NCBI GenBank assembly: GCA_951406725.2
Contig: OX597816.1
Coordinates: 114,018,001-114,082,000 of the forward strand
Direction of reading: 5' to 3'
DNA from: Octopus vulgaris
Lineage: Eukaryota
Length of the DNA stretch: 64,000 nt
Part shown: positions 13,452 through 60,479 of the stretch, piece by piece
How positions within the stretch are numbered: position 1 is the stretch's first letter
Layout: the number at the start of each line of letters is the position of its first letter
Program-made: the position numbers and the translations under genes
Notes under the pieces: model-generated
What the model was told of the DNA's origin: nothing
The model's input: only the letters and a program-made list of their open reading frames with translations
Database searches by the model: none

Positions 13452-13503
<52 letters not shown>

Positions 13504-15017
13504 GCCCTGATGCAGTACCAGGCAGTGGCTCTCATGGCTTCTGATCTTAACTGATTGGAAGTGTTATCATGTACATTGTTTTGTCTTGGTATAAAAGATG
13601 GGCTACAGCAAATATTCTGCTCAATACCACAGATTTGCTTGTCAGTTGTTTGACCTTAACCAGTTGAGCATGTCCCTTAGTGGCTGACGATATGTGCATC
13701 TCTGATCACGAGCAGAAGTAGTGGGGGAGCATCATAGCCATGTGTTGAGAGGGATTCTTTGGGGTTTGAATAGTTCACCTCTGGAAACATCGGTGGTTCT
13801 TTCAACATCCTTAAACAACCCTTATTCAGGGACCTTTTGAGCGGGATGGGCTACTCAACCTGAAGAAAATTCTAACTGGGCCCCACCTGCAAGGTCATGT
13901 GCTGTTTATCTTGATATGAGATCACCATGTCGCGCACATATGGTTGTGATGCATGTGCCTGGTGTACCTTTATCAGACGAGTAGTCATGATGGGTATATT
14001 GGGCTTCGTATATTTTACCCCAGTGTCACTTTGATGGCATGAACTGCTCTCTCACTCAATAATAATAATAATAATAATAATAATAATTATAATTATAATA
14101 ACCCTATTTTACTATAGGCACAAGGCCTGATATTTTGAAGGGAAGAATAAGTCAATAGCATTAACCCCAGTGCTCAACTGGTACTTATTTTATCAATCTT
14201 GAAAGGATCAAAGGCAGAGTTAACCACAGTGGAATTTTAACTCAGAATGTAAGGATAGAGGAAATGGCAATAAGCATTTTGCCTGGTGTGCTAATGATTT
14301 AGCCACCTTGCTGCCTTAATGATAATTACACTCCTTTCTTCTATTGGTACAAGGCCTGAAATTTTGGGTGAGGAGTCTAGCTGATTTATATCGACCCCAG
14401 TGCTTGATAAGTACCTAATTCATTTACTCTAAAAGGATGAAAGGCAAAGCCAGTCCTAATGGGATTTGAACTCAGAATGTAAAGACAGACAAAATACTGC
14501 AAAGCAGTTTGTCCAGTGTGCTAATGATTCTGTGAACTCACTGCTTTAACATCAACAACAACAACAACAACAATAATAAGAACAATAATAATAATAATAA
14601 TAATAATAACAACAACAATAGTTTCTACTAAAGGCATAAGGCCTGAAATTTGGTGGCACAGGACTAGCTGATTACATTTACCCCAGTGTTTCACTGGTAC
14701 TTAATTTATAAACCCTGAAAAGATGAAAGGCAAAGTCGACCGCGGCAGATTTTGAACTCAGAACATAGCACCAGGTGAAATACTGCTAAGCATTTTGCCT
14801 AGAGTGCTAACAAAATAATAATAATTCTTTCTACTGGAAGCACAAGGCTTCAAATTTGGAGGAAGGGAATAAGTTGAGTATATTGACCCCAGTGTGTAAC
14901 TGGTACTAGCTTAACTGACTCCGAAAGGATGAAAGGCAAAGCTGACCTTGGCAGAAATTGAACTCAGAACATAGCATCCAACAAAATGTTGCTTAGTATT
15001 TTGCCCAGTGTGCTAAC

Positions 15018-22535: not shown

Positions 22536-22539
<4 letters not shown>

Positions 22540-22880
22540 TAAAAGGAATTCCAACCTTGTCTGATTTTCATGCTTTATTTACAATCTTATAATGATATAA
22601 TATAAGATAAGATAATATAATAAAATAAAATAAAATAAAATAATAGAATGTTAAATGTTCATTCTGATTGAACTAGTACTTTCATGCATTAAATTATGCA
22701 ATCTTCAGGTTCATGTAGTAGTGGTGACAGTCATGCTCCACAATTTTTGACTGTAGCGAGATGGTTAAATCTGTGCCTTAAATACACCTGTGTAGGCTCC
22801 AGATTGCTAGGTTTTGCAAACTGTATTCTGACCAATCAGTGTGTAACATCACTCAATTACTTAAGCTGATTGGTTTAGGC
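22536..22880 (-). mobile_element. Non-coding hammerhead-bearing repeat abutting (TA)n; probable Penelope-like pseudo-LTR/retrozyme
   Basis: Intact hammerhead at 22669-22713, downstream AATAAA on minus strand (about 22573-22578), ends in (TA)n. Confidence 0.55.
22669..22713 (-). ncRNA. Type-I hammerhead ribozyme, intact core
   Basis: Minus strand TGAAC-CTGAAGA-T-TGCAT-AATTTA-ATGCA-T-GAAA-GTAC-TA-GTTCA: stem I TGAAC/GTTCA, stem II TGCAT/ATGCA with U.U at 10.1/11.1, palindromic stem III AGTACT, CUA cleavage triplet. Confidence 0.85.
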
Positions 22881-30859: not shown

Positions 30860-31065
30860 TCCCCATCATCCTGACAGGTTCTTGGTCAAACCTGTGGCAG
30901 TGGAGACTCCTAGCATTCTTGGTCCCTGGACCATATCTCTGCTCACCACTATCTAGGCAGAGATGGCTGTCTGCAAAAGTGAGCCTTGTGAGTCAGAGTG
31001 GCTGTTCCAGTGCATCTCCCTTGCCTTCCCCCAGGGCAACACCTTTCCAATTTTGTGTGCTGAGG
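30860..31065 (+). pseudogene. CRE-clade non-LTR retrotransposon C-terminal fragment
   Basis: Translation PVAVETPSILGPWTISLL...EPCESEWLFQCISLAFPQGN resembles the CRE end motif 'P.AVET.G..GP....FL...EP.E...LFQRIS.A.QRGN'. Confidence 0.75.
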
Positions 31066-31507
31066 CCATGAGGTAGTCTGACTTACATGAAATTATACAT
31101 TTCACTCTTCAATGTTAAGTCAAGTGAGGTTAGGGAGATAAATAGCAGCAATGTACATATGTAGGGGTATATGCTCATGTGGGGAGTGTGAAGACAGAAA
31201 GAATCAGATGAAGGCAGAATGAAATATATATATATATATATATATATATCATCATCATCATCATCGTTTAACGTCCGCTTTCAATGCTAGCTTGGGTTGG
31301 ACGATTTTGCCTGAAGGCTGGTGAACCAGATGGTTGCACCAGGCTCCAATCTTGATATCTATATATAAAATTGTGATGAACCATAACCTTAGATCCTGTC
31401 ATAAGAATACTTGGAGGTCTTCACTAATCTAAACAATATTGTTAGTCTGGTGTACCAACAGAGAGCTTATGAAGTGGTTTGCCTGGATTGATAATCCCTT
31501 ACTATTA

Positions 31508-31510
31508 GCT

Positions 31511-31591
<81 letters not shown>

Positions 31592-31606
31592 TAAATATAT
31601 ATATAG

Positions 31607-31660
<54 letters not shown>
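31508..31660. repeat. (CA)n(TA)n microsatellite
   Basis: Direct reading. Confidence 0.95.
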
Positions 31661-31664
<4 letters not shown>

Positions 31665-31925
31665 CAGGAAAGAGAATAAATTTCAAAGGTCAGTTTTCAT
31701 ATTCACTCAATATATTTCAAAGCATTGGAATACTCCACAGCATACATAAGTGCATTCATTTAGATAAGATATAATATAAAAATTCATAATTATCTAAATA
31801 TATAAAAATACATAAATGTACTTGCGAGGTTGTATGTCCGTATTAAAATCAATGAGGATATTAAAATATGCAGATGGTGAATGTATAGCGGTAATCCAAA
31901 TAGATGAGAAAGTTGGTATAAAACA

Positions 31926-32827
31926 TATAAACTTTACCTTACTATGGTTTCCTGAATATTCATGATTTCAGTTATTTAACTCGAAAAGACAATTAGACAG
32001 ATCTCCATCCACAATTATACCACACCAAAAAAATAGAAAGAAAGAAAGAAAAATTCACCAGAAAGAAATTATTAATTAAAGCACTGAGGGGTTGTTTTGA
32101 ACTGCATGAGAAAATCAAAAATTACCAGTTGTAGTATATATATATATATATATTCTTTTTACTCTTTACTCTTTATATATATATATATATAAATTTACTC
32201 TATATACTTTACTCTATATATATATATATATATATATAAATTTAAAATGAGGGTGAGAAATTGGATATTAATTTAATTAACATCAATTTCTCACCAGTGG
32301 TCTGGCATATAAAAATCTGAAGGTTCAGTAAATTGTATTATATACATATGAGAGGGATGACCACTATGTGAACAATCCTTATGCTAGAAGTAGATCCACA
32401 ATGGTCTTAACACTAAGAAATGTTCTCAAGAAAAATTTAACAAACACCAGAATGTAAGCAAGCAAGAGAAATGAAAAGCAACAAAAATATAGATTATTCA
32501 CATACATGTTTCACTATTAACAGATTACATAATTTTACTTACGCAATTTGTCCATAGATCTTCGGTGTGACTGTCCATACAGATATAATTTGCAGAACTA
32601 TATACTAGGACACCCACACAAAGTCGGGCTTATATATAGTTCTACCTATTACACTCATGGTTACAATCTATATTTTTGTTACTTTTCATTTGTCTTGCTT
32701 GCTTACATTCTGGTGTTTGCTGAATTTTTCTTGAGAACATTCTTAGTGGTAAGACCATAGCAGATCTACTTCTAACATAAGGGTTGTCCACATAGTGGTC
32801 ATCTCTCACATATGTATACAATACATA

Positions 32828-32883
<56 letters not shown>

Positions 32884-33059
32884 CCCTCAGTTCTTTAATT
32901 AATAATTTCTTCCAGGTGTTTTTTTCCTTTCTTTGCTTTTTCTTTTGTTTTTTGTTTTTTGGTGGTATAGTTGTGAGTGGAGATCTGTCTAATTGTCATT
33001 TTGAGTAAAATAGCTGAAATCACGAATATTCAGTAAACCAAAGTAAGGTAAAGTTTATA
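31926..33059. repeat. Nested inverted repeats: outer arms 31926-32093/32881-33059, inner arms 32334-32495/32665-32825
   Basis: Arms are reverse-complementary with scattered mismatches; (TA)n arrays lie between outer and inner arms. Confidence 0.9.
32498..32570 (-). ncRNA. Type-I hammerhead motif with long stem II and U4C change
   Basis: Minus strand TCACA-CCGAAGA-T-CTATGGACAAATTGCGTAA-GTAAAA-TTATGTAATCTGTTAATAG-T-GAAA-CATG-TA-TGTGA; stem I 5 bp, stem II about 19 bp imperfect, palindromic stem III ACATGT, GUA triplet. Confidence 0.75.
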
Positions 33060-35614
33060 CAATATTCCAAATTCACTTTCCTGGCAAACAGATTATGATC
33101 AAAGTCAAGCAAACTGTATATATAAGCTTTAGATTTACATTCTCTGTGTCATAAAACTCTATCAACACAGTTATAACAAATATATCTGACATTTAAATAC
33201 ATATCAGTCCTGCCATATCAACTATATGAACAGAAAAACATAAATTTCAAAATAAATAATTTAAATTCAATAAAAACAATGGTTTAAAGAATTTGTGAGT
33301 ATAAGCAGGTTATTTATTTAGTTTTATCATTTTTCATGTAAGGGAGGATTGAGGATGTAAGAATTATTCATCGAAAATTTTTTTTATTTTATTCAAACTT
33401 ACTGTTTTATGTGACTTACAATGTCATATTGTTTATACATTTAATACATTGCAGGAACTGTGAACATTTTGCATTTTATAAATATTTTAACTTTCATTTT
33501 GATGTATAAATTTATATATCTTTATAAGAGTTTCTCATGATATTAAAGATTGGCACGATACTCTGAAATTTGTTGTTTTACATTCTGAGGGGCTATGATT
33601 TTCTATACATTAGGTATTTCAACATTTGGTGCCTTGTTTGTTATTGTTGTTGTTGCCTAGTGCGAAGGCAACCATGATCAAATTTTTTGAACAATAAATA
33701 TGCCAGCTCTTTTCTAGGACTAATCTATCCAGAATGTCCTAACATTTTAAAGACTATGCCTGAAAAAAAGTCAGGAGAGTCATAGCTGGAATGCTTAATC
33801 AGAGCTGACTTAGAAATACACAACAATATCAAAGAAGGCACCTAATATTTAGATATCCAGTAATAACTGACAAGGGCATGTGTAAAAGTGGTGAAATCTG
33901 ATCTCAGGTTACTAAGTCATGAGTGACGGCTACAAGGGGTGTTACATTGCATAGGAGAAAATCTGCCCCATCTTTGCATGCAGAGAAAAAGTAGAGCTAA
34001 AGTAATGATGATGATGATGATGATGATGATGCAATGCTGATGCAATGATGTAGAGTGTGGTTGAGGGATATATATTAGAAGTGTCTTCTTCGACTTGCCA
34101 TCTTGTATGCATTGATGAAAGATAAGAGTGAGAAGAAATTAATTCGTTTTTGAAACAAATTCTTAATCCATAAGTTACTTAAAACATTTAGAGATACATT
34201 TCTATAATTTTAGTAAAAATTAGATCTGAAAAACACTATTTTTTAAACAGTACAATACTTCTATAAGCATTTCTGGCTAAAATGTCAAATATATTGAAAA
34301 ACTCAACTGTTTCTGAGCACAACTATAATATTTAGTAACTTTGCATCTATTCAACATTTTCTTAGAATGTATAACAGATAGCTTTGATATCATTCTAAAT
34401 AAAGAACTCGTGTCTTCTTCAGCAGAAACTGTGAGTGAATGCATGTTATTTGTCATTCATATTATTCAGAAGAAATAGCTAGAGTATGATGGCATTTTCC
34501 TTTTAATTTAATGAAAAATAAAAGTGTCACGGTTCTTGAGCACCAGAGAATTTATTAGTTATTAGTCTTTGGAGAGCCTTGCCTTTAATGATAAATCCAT
34601 CTCATTGGAATATTTTTACCAAACGTGGATAAAATATAGTTGATATACAACTTTTAACTAATAGGTTGCAACATTTTTGCCATTTATATCTGCCAAGAGA
34701 AAGGATAATTGGCCCTTTAAAAATCGATATTTTTAAAATGATGTATTTCCTATGGTTATATATTTCAAATATCTCTCTCTATATATTTATTATTACCAAA
34801 GTGCAAAATGCCTGTGGTGTTGTTCTGCTTCTCAAATAAACTAAAAACAGTTTCTGTTTTTTTTAATTAGGAAATATTACTGCTTATTGTCAATAGGAGG
34901 AAACATGAAAATCGGTAAAATTGCTGTTGCTGGCAAATTCTAAAATTACTTGAATTTTTTAATTACTTTCCTGATCTCTCTGAAGAATGTGTTTACATTT
35001 TCTGATTCCAAAACGCTAAAATGATAAGTGAGTGATGTTTCATTATGTAGATCTCTGTACTATATTCCTTGGATCTGTTTTTCTTAGATTCATCATCATC
35101 ATCATCGTTTAACGTCTGCTTTCTATGCTAGCATGGATTGGACGATTTGACTGAGGTCTGGCAAACCAGATGGCTGCACTAGATTTCAATCTGATCTGGC
35201 AGAGTTTCTACAGCTGGATACTCTTCCTAATGCCAACCACTCCGAGAGTGTAGTGGGTGCTTTTACGTGCCAATTATTAGTATTAATTCCATGTACCTAC
35301 AGATGCAGAAGGAATTTTTCATACTTCCTCTGTAAAAAAAATTAAATTAAATTAAATGAATCTAATGATAATGATGCTCTTTTTGTATCATACTTAAAGG
35401 GGAATGAAACTTCAATAGTTTTAGAGTAAAGAAAATACTTGAAAGTGATTTAACTTCAATCAACTGATATGAAAGAAATGTGTAGGCTACCTGATGCAAA
35501 GAAATAATTAAACAAAGGAAATCTCAGAATATTTGGTGATAGGTATAGACTTTTTGAATATATATCAGTATATAAATATCTGGGTATATTGTCAATAAAG
35601 ACCAATAACTTAAA

Positions 35615-37466: not shown

Positions 37467-37620
37467 TAATGCTTAAATAAAATGGAAGAAAAATATATAA
37501 GTAGTAATGCTTAAATAAAATGGAAGAAAAATATATAAGTAGTAATGCTTAAATAAAATGGAAGAAAAATATATAAGTAGTAATGCTTAAATAAAATGGA
37601 AGAAAAACATATAAGTAGTA
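37467..37620. repeat. 38-bp minisatellite x4
   Basis: TAATGCTTAAATAAAATGGAAGAAAAATATATAAGTAG repeated four times with one substitution. Confidence 0.95.
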
Positions 37621-49543: not shown

Positions 49544-50041
49544 CCGTGCCGGTGACACATAAAAGCACCGTCCACTCGTGGCCGTTTGCCAGCTCTGTCT
49601 GGCAACCGTGTCGGTGGCACGTAAAAGCACCATCCGTTCGCGTCCATTGCCAGCCTCGGCTGGCCCCCGTGCCGGTGACACGTAAAAGCACCGTCCGTTC
49701 GTGGCCAGTTGCCAGCTCTGTCTGGCCCCGTGTCGGTGGCACGTAAAAGCACCATCCGTTCGTGTCCGTTGCCAGCATCGCCTGGCCCCGTGCCGGTGAC
49801 ACGTAAAAGCACCATCCGTTCGTGGCCGTTCGCCAGCTCTGTCTGGCACCTGTGCAGGTGGCACGTAAAAAACACCCACTACACTCGCGGAGTGGTTGGC
49901 GTTAGGAAGGGCATCCAGCCGTAGAAACACTGCCAGATCTGACTGGGCCTGACGAAGCCTTCCAGCTTCACAGACCCCAGTTGACCCGTCCAACCCATGC
50001 TAGCATGGAAAACGGACGCTAAACGATGATGATAATGATGA

Positions 50042-53869: not shown

Positions 53870-54130
53870 TAAAAAGCAATCTTTATTTCCAACTTTACTT
53901 GGTTGTTGAGTTAGAATACAGAATACTGCATTGTTTACCTTGAGAGGACTACTCATAGGAACTCATGGAGCATAAAAGCGCTCATATTTATATGATTGGC
54001 AGATGAGAACCATCTGCTACAGCTGCTGGAATCGTCAGATCATGTAATTTCACCCTGTTTTGGGCTCTTCAGTGACAGGAACCCAGTAGCAATATAACAC
54101 CTCCCATCAATGATTTATAAAATATCATTG
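53870..54130 (-). mobile_element. Hammerhead-bearing repeat family H, copy 2
   Basis: Homologous to 25310-25612; minus-strand AATAAA at about 53882-53887. Confidence 0.75.
54034..54076 (-). ncRNA. Type-I hammerhead ribozyme, intact core
   Basis: Minus strand GTCA-CTGAAGA-GCCC-AAAACA-GGGT-GAAA-TTACATGA-TC-TGAC: stem I GTCA/TGAC, stem II GCCC/GGGT, near-palindromic stem III, AUC triplet. Confidence 0.8.
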
Positions 54131-57576: not shown

Positions 57577-58105
57577 GAGGGAGAGAGTAGTGCATGCCAT
57601 CAAAGTGACACTGGGGTAAACACATACAAAACCCAGTATACCCATCATGACTACCTGTCTGATAAGGGTACACTAGGCATATGCATCACAACCATATGTG
57701 TGTGATAATAAACAATGCATGACCTTGCAGGTGGGGCCCAGTTAGAATTTTCTTCTGGTTGAGTAGCCCATCCCACTCAAAAGGTCCTTGAATATGAGTT
57801 GTTTAAGGATGTTGAACGAAATACCTATGTTTCCAGGGATGAATTATTCAAACTCCAAAGAATTCCCCTCAACACATGGCTATGATGCTCCTCTACTACT
57901 TCTGCTCATGATCAGAGATGCACATATCATCAGCCACTAAGGGACATGCTCAACTGATTGAGGTCAAACAACAGACAAGCAAATCTGAGCAGAATATTTG
58001 CTGTAGCCCATCTTTTAAACCAAGACAAATCAATGTACATGATAACACTTCCAATCACTTAAGATCAGGAGCCATGAGATCCACTGTCTGGTACTGCATA
58101 AGGGC
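57577..58105 (-). mobile_element. Family D element, copy 2
   Basis: Reverse complement of 13504-14057 with small deletions; (ATT)n flanks. Confidence 0.9.
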
Positions 58106-58120
58106 ATTATTATTATTATT

Positions 58121-58336
58121 GAGTGAGAGAGCAGTTCATGCCATCAAAGTGACACTGGGGTAAAATATACGAAGCCCAATATACCCATCATGACTACCCG
58201 TCTGATAAGGGCACACCAGGCACATGCATCACAGCCATATGTGCACGACATGATCTCATATCAAGATAAACTGCACATGACCTTGCAGGTGGGGCCCAGT
58301 TAGAATTTTCTTCAGGTTGAGTAGCCCATCCTGCTC
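58121..58336 (-). mobile_element. Family D element, copy 3 (truncated, retains the CTCTCTCACTC end)
   Basis: Matches the last about 215 bp of 13504-14057. Confidence 0.9.
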
Positions 58337-58390
<54 letters not shown>

Positions 58391-59084
58391 CAGTATTATT
58401 ATTATTATCATCATTTTGTCACTGAGCTGGCAGACTAATTAGCACATTAGACAAGATGCTTAGCTGCATTCCTTCCAGCTTTTTACATTCTGAGTTCAAG
58501 TTCTGCTGAAGCCAACTTCTTTTTTCATTCTTTCAGGGCTGATAAAATAAGTATCAATTATGCCTTGGGGTTGATACATCTGACTTACACTCTGCCTTAA
58601 GTTGTTGGTCTTGTGCTAAATTTAGAAAGAATTATTACTATTACTAAGGTAGCAAGCTGGCAGAATTATAGGAATGTTGGACAAAATGCTTTGTGACATT
58701 TTTTCTGGATCGTTATGTTCTGAATTCAAATCTTTGCTTTTCATCCTAAATTATTGGCCTTGTGCCAAATTTTGAAATCTTTATTATTATTATTATTAAG
58801 GCAGTGAGCTAGCAGAATTGTTAGCATGCCAGGTGAAATGCTTAATGGTGTTTAGTCTGTCTTCATGTTATGTGTTCAAATTCTGCCGCAGTTGTCTTTA
58901 CCTTTCAGCTTTTCGGGGTTGATAAATTAAGTAACGGTGGAACACTGGGGTCGACGTAATCGATCAGCTCCCTCCCCCAAAATTTCAGGCCTTGCACCTA
59001 TAGTAGAAAGGATTATTATTATCATTATTATCATAGAAGAAATCATTATCATTTTTATTATGTTTTGGTTTTGCTTTAATTTAT

Positions 59085-59835
59085 ATGAGTTGTACCCAAG
59101 TCTCAACCAGAGATGTTGAGGTACAACAAGGTTTTGCATCTGAAGATGCTAATAGGTGAGGTGTCATACAGCTGCTGTACTTCCATCATGCTGTTCAACC
59201 TGGGTATTATGCATAAACTTACTTGAAAATTTTTTTCTCTCCTTCATAACAGAGTGAAGCTTCTTACATCCTTCATGGTTTTCAACGAGCTTTAGCATCC
59301 AGTCATTAGATACTTTCAAGATACTTTGCCAGTCCAGTTGTGGTGGTTTTGTAGGAGATTTCAAATTGGATTAAGCCTCGACCTCCTTGAGCTCTGGGTA
59401 GGTAAAGACAATCTGCATCTGCCTTTGGGTGGTGCATCTATTTTGCAAGTCAGCAGCTCACAGATTTTCCTGTCAATCTTCCTTATTTTACTCATATTCC
59501 AGTTCAACACATTGAAATTGTAAATAACAACCAGGATTGCTAAGGAATCTATTGCTAACACCTTGTTATATGCATTTAACTCAAATCTTAGGATTGCTCG
59601 AACTCACCTGTAATATCCCTTCCTGATCTTCTCTTTCATACTTGCATGCTGAATGCCAGAGTCCTCATTTATTCTGAGGTATTTGTAAGTTTATTCCAGC
59701 ACGAGTTCTTTTATGACTGTGTCAACATTAAACACCACTGAATGTGAGGTCTTCTATTTCCTTTTCTGGAAAGCAGCCATGACACATTTATCAAGACCAC
59801 ATTCCATCCCAATGCCATCACAATGCTTTCACAGT
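59085..59835 (-). pseudogene. R4/Dong-clade retrotransposon RT C-terminal fragment
   Basis: YKYLRI; LAIDSLAILVVIYNFNVLNWNMSKIRKIDRKICELLT resembles 'AIN..A.PV..YSF....W...E...LDRK.RKLLT'. Confidence 0.8.
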
Positions 59836-59883
59836 ATGTATGTATGTATTATTATTATCATTATTATTATTATCATTATTATA

Positions 59884-60443
59884 GAGTGAGAGAGCAGTGC
59901 ATAACATCAAAGTGACACTTGGGTAAAATATACGAAGCCCAGTATACCCATCATGACTATCCATCTGATAAGGGTACACCAGGCACATGAATCACAACCA
60001 TATGTGCATGATATGGTGATCTCATATCAAGATAAACAGCACATGTCCTTGCAGGTGGGGCCCAGTTAGAATTTTCTTCTGGTTGAGTTGCCCATCCCAC
60101 TCAAAAGGTCCCTAAATAAGGATTGTTTAAGGATGTTGAATGAACCACCCATGTTTCCAGAGGTGAATTATCCAAACCCCAAAGAATTCTACTCAACACA
60201 CGGCTATGATGCTCCCCCACTACTTCTGCTTGTGCTCGTGATCAGAGATGTACATATTGTCAGCCACCAAGGGACATGCTCAACTGGTTAAGGTCAAACA
60301 ACTGACAAGCAAATCTGTGGTATTGAGCAGAATATTTGCTGTGCCCCATCTTTTATACCAAGACAAAACAATGTACTTGATAACACTTCCAATCAGTTAA
60401 GATCAGAAGCCATGAGAGCCACTGCATGGTACTGCATCAGGGC
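59884..60443 (-). mobile_element. Family D element, copy 4
   Basis: Full-length reverse complement of 13504-14057, ATT-rich flanks. Confidence 0.9.
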
Positions 60444-60479
60444 ATTTTAATAATAATTATTATTTATTATTATATGCTA

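Follow-up and report, generated by a model that had tools for sequence, protein, structure and literature searches.

A nested inverted repeat in Octopus vulgaris whose inner unit probably descends from a single old Penelope-like insertion

The insertion unit of endonuclease-bearing (EN+) Penelope-like elements (PLEs), as described in the available text of PMC8557442, combines 5′ truncation, an inverted truncated copy and a one-sided tail of 30–40 nt with (TA)n targets; the same text notes that these inversions trouble genome assemblies. File S2 of that paper contains a CUGAnGAU...UGAA pattern in 14 of 26 Hydra-clade rows, and in 14 of 34 rows overall. In Adineta vaga, Penelope copies have head-to-head pLTRs with palindromes at the inverted junction, and self-priming has been proposed for PLEs (PMC3846280). 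In vitro, the protein of a lizard PLE makes nicks in both strands of AT-rich DNA and extends from them, and two reverse transcription (RT) start sites on the RNA of the lizard element explain its tails (PMC11167929). The minimal hammerheads of PLEs have a long helix II, a short helix I and a palindromic helix III, and in metazoans they occur mostly as single motifs in truncated copies (PMC4209133). Known natural variants of the hammerhead include U4C, which reduces activity in vitro, and U10.1.U11.1 (PMC3088659). Finally, animal non-LTR retrozymes have been proposed to derive from PLE pLTRs (bioRxiv 10.64898/2026.07.22.740005).

We analysed a locus within a 64-kb stretch of Octopus vulgaris DNA (the window), which is AT-rich, animal-type and dense in microsatellites, with a GC content of 0.25–0.42 per 2 kb and 64 tandem-repeat rows. 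An earlier note had described two nested inverted pairs at this locus, with (TA)n between them and the potential to form a fold-back of about 1.1 kb, and this arrangement was borne out by BLAST, by the tandem-repeat listing and by folding. When 31000–34000 was compared with the window, the inner arms (32334–32495 and 32665–32825) matched in inverted orientation at 90.7% over 162 columns (E 5e-59) and the outer arms (31926–32093 and 32881–33059) at 83.8% over 179 columns (E 3e-48). Tandem (TA)n tracts occupy 32135–32238 (interrupted) and 32810–32879. The plus strand of 31926–33059 is predicted to fold at −521 kcal/mol, with 150 of 162 inner-arm bases and 153 of 168 outer-arm bases paired with the partner arm. 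Considering substitutions only, the inner arms differ at 15 of 166 columns and the outer arms, counted without their A-rich middle, at 15 of 139, a difference that is indistinguishable (Fisher p 0.70).

Read from left to right, the locus begins with the outer left arm (31926–32093, plus strand), followed by 41 nt (32094–32134, plus strand) that have no match in the right outer arm in the alignment and by the interrupted (TA)n tract (32135–32238), which would be the left side of the target site. A long copy of a hammerhead-bearing family occupies 32240–32664 on the minus strand, with its 3′ end facing the left (TA)n; it is 5′-truncated or ends at about 32664. Abutting it is a short inverted copy (32665–32825, plus strand), equivalent to 32495–32334, that lacks the tail and has its 3′ end facing the right (TA)n. 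The remaining (TA)n (32826–32879) would be the right side of the target site, and the outer right arm (32881–33059, minus strand) is the inverted partner of 31926–32093. Each left arm thus has an unpaired extension beside (TA)n, of 94 nt (32240–32333) in the inner pair and of 41 nt in the outer pair.

The long copy contains a type I minimal hammerhead motif on the minus strand (32498–32570), with a predicted cut after 32503; both these coordinates and the start of the inverted match about 7 nt downstream of the cut agree with the earlier note. Read from 32570 to 32498, the motif comprises a 5-bp stem I, the core CCGAAGA (the U4C variant), a long stem II with U.U at its base and, in GAAA-C-AU-G-UA, a palindromic stem III; 46 nt of stem II lie between CUGAnGA and GAAA. 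It follows the CUGAnGAU...UGAA pattern known from File S2 of PMC8557442. The conserved core and the three helices of a type I hammerhead are therefore all present, with the U4C and U10.1.U11.1 variants. A stricter descriptor, composed after the motif had been seen, gave two matches in the window (this motif and 22708–22674) and none in 200 block-wise dinucleotide shuffles. No Rfam hammerhead reached the gathering score across the whole window, and none was among the 16 matches up to E 10 in 31500–33500, which were microsatellite-driven or far below the gathering score. In the contigs described below, the canonical U4 makes up 60–72% of the depth in three runs where this copy has C, and the family majority letter at 32529 converts a G.U pair of stem II to G-C, so that judged by its letters the hammerhead of this copy looks decayed, or its subfamily weaker.

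Two further structured elements were found in the long copy. An imperfect hairpin of about 88 nt (32575–32661, minus strand) lies just 5′ of the ribozyme, at the head-to-head pivot, with z-scores of −5.4 as RNA and −2.4 as DNA. Among the family letters listed, three of its pairs are restored and one pair is changed on both sides, indicating that the hairpin is a conserved family feature. The 94-nt one-sided 3′ extension (the tail; 32240–32333, minus strand) includes a hairpin at 32252–32295 with a z-score of −6.1 as RNA. We also observed a hydrophobic frame of 42 codons (32382–32507, minus strand) whose ATG lies in ribozyme loop III and would be removed by the predicted cut; a search with these 42 residues gave six candidate relatives, none at E 0.01, and no longer relative. 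A possible splice donor lies near the end of the right inner arm.

The inner sequence belongs to a many-copy family. We aligned four sets of DNA contigs (X4, X5, X7 and X12, from four organisms, of 24 runs) to 31661–32664 at 80% likeness, leaving out 32023–32252, and drew on the 40 of 364 letter rows, 15 of 25 joints, 24 of 741 loose ends and 32 of 4342 pieces that were listed. The numbers of aligned contigs were 1624, 1367, 876 and 386 in the four runs; contig depth is not copy number, and contigs are not copies and cannot show the ends of molecules. In X4, X5 and X7, the majority letter was carried by 63–104 contigs per run at the five sites listed between 32371 and 32410, by 28–57 at 32468/32479, by 40–53 at 32529, by 23–39 at 32554/32572/32582 and by 11–15 at 32612/32613/32628/32632; cover in X12 stops at 32544. 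This drop toward the 5′ side fits 5′-truncated copies with their 3′ end on the left. It was seen in three runs, and is a rough indication of dispersed copies because contigs are not copies. Summed depth just 5′ of the cut was 0.74 of that in the 32477–32510 bin, falling to 0.01–0.05 beyond 32613, and summed depth of the tail was 0.35–0.52 of that of the body; this measure is unsuited to ranking parts, and we used contig counts instead. Scans with family motif patterns found no loci in metagenome contigs, viral contigs or prokaryote genomes. An 18-letter pattern did occur at 34 loci in prokaryote genomes, against 34.7 expected by chance, and we rejected these matches, none of which extends beyond 30 columns.

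The contigs also show two 3′ ends for the family. Loose ends pass into (TA)n at 32339 in at least 17 records in X5 and at least four in X12, and judged from these contig sequences 32334–32339 or thereabouts is the family's native short 3′ end, followed by (TA)n. Contig pieces covering 32269–32437 and 32310–32493 show the tail sequence contiguous with the family body. A short 3′ end at 32339 in some copies, with others running into 32240–32333, amounts to a one-sided tail. The predicted cut sits 170 and 263 nt from these two 3′ ends. At the 14 sites of substitution between the inner arms, the right-arm letter equals the family majority at eight (83–100% of X4 depth), the other six lying outside the letter rows listed. 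The majority letters in the right arm indicate that both inner arms were derived from a family-like template and decayed separately.

We consider it likely that the inner unit (32240–32825) arose from a single old Penelope-like insertion, with the outer arms a separate local duplication. A PLE, or a non-autonomous derivative of one, is the most likely identity of the inner element, given how the insertion is built, what type of ribozyme it carries and how the family behaves in the contigs. In these three respects the likeness to inverted PLE pseudo-LTRs drawn in the earlier note held; the proposal attached to it, that cleavage set the 5′ end, is not shown by the data. Both 3′ ends at the locus adjoin (TA)n, as do the loose ends listed at 32339; a truncated copy is joined head to head at the locus; and a type I minimal hammerhead lies near the 3′ end, as in EN+ PLEs. 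No target-site duplication was readable within (TA)n. There was no RT or GIY-YIG ORF in the window, either among the 139 open frames compared with Pfam or in the search with the 42-residue frame. None of the 139 frames reached a Pfam cut-off, and of the two sub-threshold matches neither lies close to the locus. The absence of an ORF is expected because the inner pieces are 3′ stubs. Given that no RT-endonuclease ORF is linked and that the tail is overlong, we infer PLE membership rather than observe it. Six short words were looked for in the consensus sequences that accompany PMC8557442, as available, and none was found; line breaks and divergence can mask matches there.

[quoted passage not shown] The two start sites, one for each end, would have lain 94 nt apart, so that the tail was copied in one case and left out in the other. 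Synthesis of the long cDNA would have ended at about 32661–32664, where the hairpin 5′ of the ribozyme has its outer end, and that of the short cDNA at 32495, the 3′ boundary of stem I, both stops probably being due to RNA structure. The 5′ ends of the two cDNAs would then have been joined head to head, after which the arms would have decayed independently to a difference of about 9%. With decay to this extent, the inner copy is probably dead.

The abundance of the family, together with the 9% difference between the arms, could also reflect two independent insertions that came to lie side by side by chance in opposite orientation. We regard this as very improbable. No host sequence separates the abutting 5′ ends of the arms, (TA)n lies next to both 3′ ends, and the rest of the 64-kb window yielded no further copy of the inner-arm family. 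Opposite-strand joints also occur at other family loci, accounting for four of the 15 joints listed (25 in all): 32289/32409, 32297/32374, 32370/32444 and, in X5, 32416/32496. The recurrence of inverted arrangements that the earlier note had raised is thus seen for opposite-strand joints, whose geometry is not given, and the head-to-head form is established at this locus. In three of the four joints the break points are 74–80 nt apart.

The earlier note had further proposed that self-cleavage set the start of the inverted arm. In that case the short arm would have been copied from the 3′ product of hammerhead cleavage, with its 5′ end fixed at 32503/32502 and 5–7 nt lost at the junction. The inverted copy does begin to match at 32495, with only 7 nt (32502–32496) between the match and the predicted cut, and a start placed uniformly would lie no more than 10 nt downstream of the cut in about 3% of cases, by a criterion chosen after the fact. 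Moreover, one of the four listed opposite-strand joints, 32416/32496 in X5, breaks 1 nt from the arm start; the chance that one break of eight falls within 3 nt of a fixed place is about 12%. However, the other three joints break elsewhere, family contigs continue 5′ of the cut in about equal numbers (40–53 at 32529, 5′ of it, against 28–57 at 32468/32479, 3′ of it), and the long arm of the inner unit spans the entire ribozyme. No pile-up of ends at the cut was seen among the loose ends listed, although contigs are a poor test of molecule ends. The arm begins at the stem I boundary and not at the cut, and what it lacks is seven nucleotides that form the 3′ strand of that stem; an RT stop at the folded motif therefore fits equally well. 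The available text of PMC11167929 reports that cleavage was dispensable for insertion of the lizard element and that no RNA-seq reads started or ended at the cut, and metazoan minimal hammerheads failed to cleave as monomers in vitro (PMC4209133). We found no published link between the starts of inverted arms and the hammerhead cut, subscription literature being outside the scope of our search. Overall, it is unlikely that the cut defined the arm, and a single Penelope-like insertion with structure-induced stops accommodates its start.

A broader version of this idea, which we put forward tentatively and consider doubtful, is that, in the family's head-to-head insertions, short arms start preferentially at the 3′ boundary of stem I, which is 32495 at this locus and 32496 in one joint from X5. 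RT would end at the ribozyme, whether self-cleaved or folded and protein-bound, and the long arm would end at the conserved 88-nt hairpin. If true, genomic copies would record ribozyme-defined template ends in vivo, unlike the lizard element in vitro.

The outer arms differ from the inner sequence in copy number. A piece of a third, many-copy repeat family occupies 31661–31923, ending 2 nt before the outer left arm; a (TA)n tract (31533–31660) in the tandem-repeat listing lies to its left. This third family was present in all four runs, with 10–39 contigs per listed site and run, and behind 31923 one shared other continuation was found in 22, 18, 14 and 12 records in the four runs. By contrast, on the outer left arm (31933–32022) X4 and X5 each had one contig with other letters per listed site, and X12 had 1–3 contigs with mixed letters, with three at 31987; these counts rest on X4, X5 and X12, X7 having shown no cover there, and copies less than 80% alike are invisible to them. 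The X4 and X5 contigs carry the letters of the right outer arm at five of five listed sites, and a second X4 contig carries those of the left. With 1–3 contigs against 10–39 for the neighbouring family, the outer arms are low-copy DNA. Of the two unrelated repeats claimed in the earlier note, the inner is indeed a many-copy family, and the outer pair is low-copy DNA, with no second family. Among copies at least 80% alike, the same 1–3 contigs per listed site led us to reject a fold-back or MITE-type DNA transposon with the outer arms as its ends, for which many copies would be expected.

These contigs also bear on the possibility of an assembly artefact, a fold-back chimera. PLE inversions do trouble assemblies (PMC8557442), and among the contig pieces listed none spans the junction 32664/32665, which lies at the edge of the aligned stretch. 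Nevertheless, a chimera should have near-identical arms, whereas the arms differ by 9–16%, and right outer-arm letters recur in the independent X4 and X5 runs, with left-arm letters in the second X4 contig. The difference between the arms and the recurrence in independent runs indicate that the locus is no such chimera, an explanation we find scarcely credible.

Local duplication, separate from the inner insertion and of about the same age, is the probable origin of the outer arms. In the simplest version of this proposal, whose first step is the least certain, copying would have taken place at the third repeat (31661–31923), with its 5′ junction as the site of an inverted templated copy and self-complementary (TA)n as the return point, and the inner unit would subsequently have inserted into the central (TA)n of the outer pair. 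Local duplication requires an extra deletion to explain the 41-nt asymmetry of the outer pair. That asymmetry has another possible source: the outer arms could be two copies of an old, low-copy PLE-like family, tail to tail at (TA)n, with the left copy carrying a 41-nt tail and the inner unit arriving later. Both outer arms face (TA)n, a one-sided extension of 41 nt is close to the published tails of 30–40 nt (PMC8557442), and X12 had its three contigs at 31987. However, the single contig with other letters per listed site in each of X4 and X5 carries the right arm's own letters, and no hammerhead was found in either outer arm. We therefore doubt this account, while noting that copies less than 80% alike escape the contig search.

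Both pairs could alternatively have formed in one DNA-level fold-back: a strand ending at 32664 would have folded and copied 32495 to 31926, with (TA)n and host flank included, and the copy would afterwards have shed 94 and 41 nt next to the (TA)n. Colinearity and equal divergence of the pairs (Fisher p 0.70) agree with this, the outer arm is low-copy DNA, and self-priming has already been proposed for PLEs (PMC3846280). Against this, the end of the right copy is the point at which (TA)n natively begins in other copies of the family, so that no deletion has to be assumed there, whereas a single fold-back requires two separate losses. In addition, microhomology at the pivot is no longer than about 2 nt, and such a fold-back gives no reason for the outer arm to terminate where the third family is cut off. 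A single fold-back is therefore a rather improbable origin, and we favour an inner Penelope-like insertion into a locally duplicated outer pair.

Several other features of the window deserve mention. A second minimal hammerhead, of the same CUGAAGAU...UGAA type but unrelated in sequence to the motif at 32498–32570, lies at 22674–22713 on the minus strand, with (TA)n near 22536, about 140 nt downstream; it is probably the 3′ stub of another Penelope-like family. A looser scan listed a hammerhead-like motif at 54038–54077 on the minus strand, with a non-palindromic stem III; as a hammerhead, 54072–54038 failed the stricter descriptor and was rejected. Several inverted copies with 91–97% identity, about 44–46 kb apart, lie beside (AAT)n at 13500–14093 and 57708–60447, and represent a younger repeat family. 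A GC-richer tandem array with periods of 61 and 122, flanked by TA tracts, occupies 49544–49870, and a 38-nt unit is repeated four times, near-perfectly (99% matches), at 37467–37620.

Inverted repeat pairs are common editing substrates in animals, and the 1.1-kb fold-back described here would, if transcribed, yield a long double-stranded RNA. In its own right, the locus is a decayed insertion of known shape, ordinary transposon debris. The available text of PMC8557442 states that the role of hammerheads in PLEs is unclear. The inverted arms give a weak hint of ending at the ribozyme edge, and an abundant family with many inversion junctions would permit a direct count of arm starts against the cut site.

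How the inner unit compares with described systems can be summarised from the available parts of the papers concerned. It shares with animal non-LTR retrozymes the form of a short non-coding repeat with a type I hammerhead (bioRxiv 10.64898/2026.07.22.740005); we rejected this class because, as described there, it needs at least two tandem ribozyme-bearing units, whereas the locus has one ribozyme in an inverted layout. In common with the minimal hammerheads of metazoan PLEs (PMC4209133), the motif is of type I with a short helix I, a long helix II and a palindromic helix III that is predicted to require a dimer; it differs in carrying U4C and in having U10.1.U11.1 where G-C is usual, and there is one ribozyme here, whereas the inverted pairs reported in that paper have two motifs. 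Adineta vaga Penelope (PMC3846280) likewise has head-to-head inverted copies, an optional tail on one of them and a palindrome at the junction, although the palindrome is about 88 nt and imperfect here and 18–38 bp there, and the present locus is without an ORF or a readable target-site duplication. With Poseidon PAc of Anolis carolinensis (PMC11167929) the inner unit has in common two 3′ ends downstream of the ribozyme and an AT-rich target. In both, an ATG falls within the ribozyme; at this locus it is the one in loop III, opening only 42 codons. The mechanism we propose is borrowed from PAc. EN+ PLEs (PMC8557442) similarly show 5′ truncation, a truncated inverted copy joined at the 5′ end, a one-sided tail and (TA)n targets, and their hammerhead, too, sits close to the 3′ end and has, in 14 of 26 Hydra-clade rows, U.U at the foot of stem II; the tail here is 94 nt where theirs are 30–40 nt, and stem II is much longer here. 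With its unusually long tail and stem II, the inner family would be an unnamed member of a class of element that is already known.
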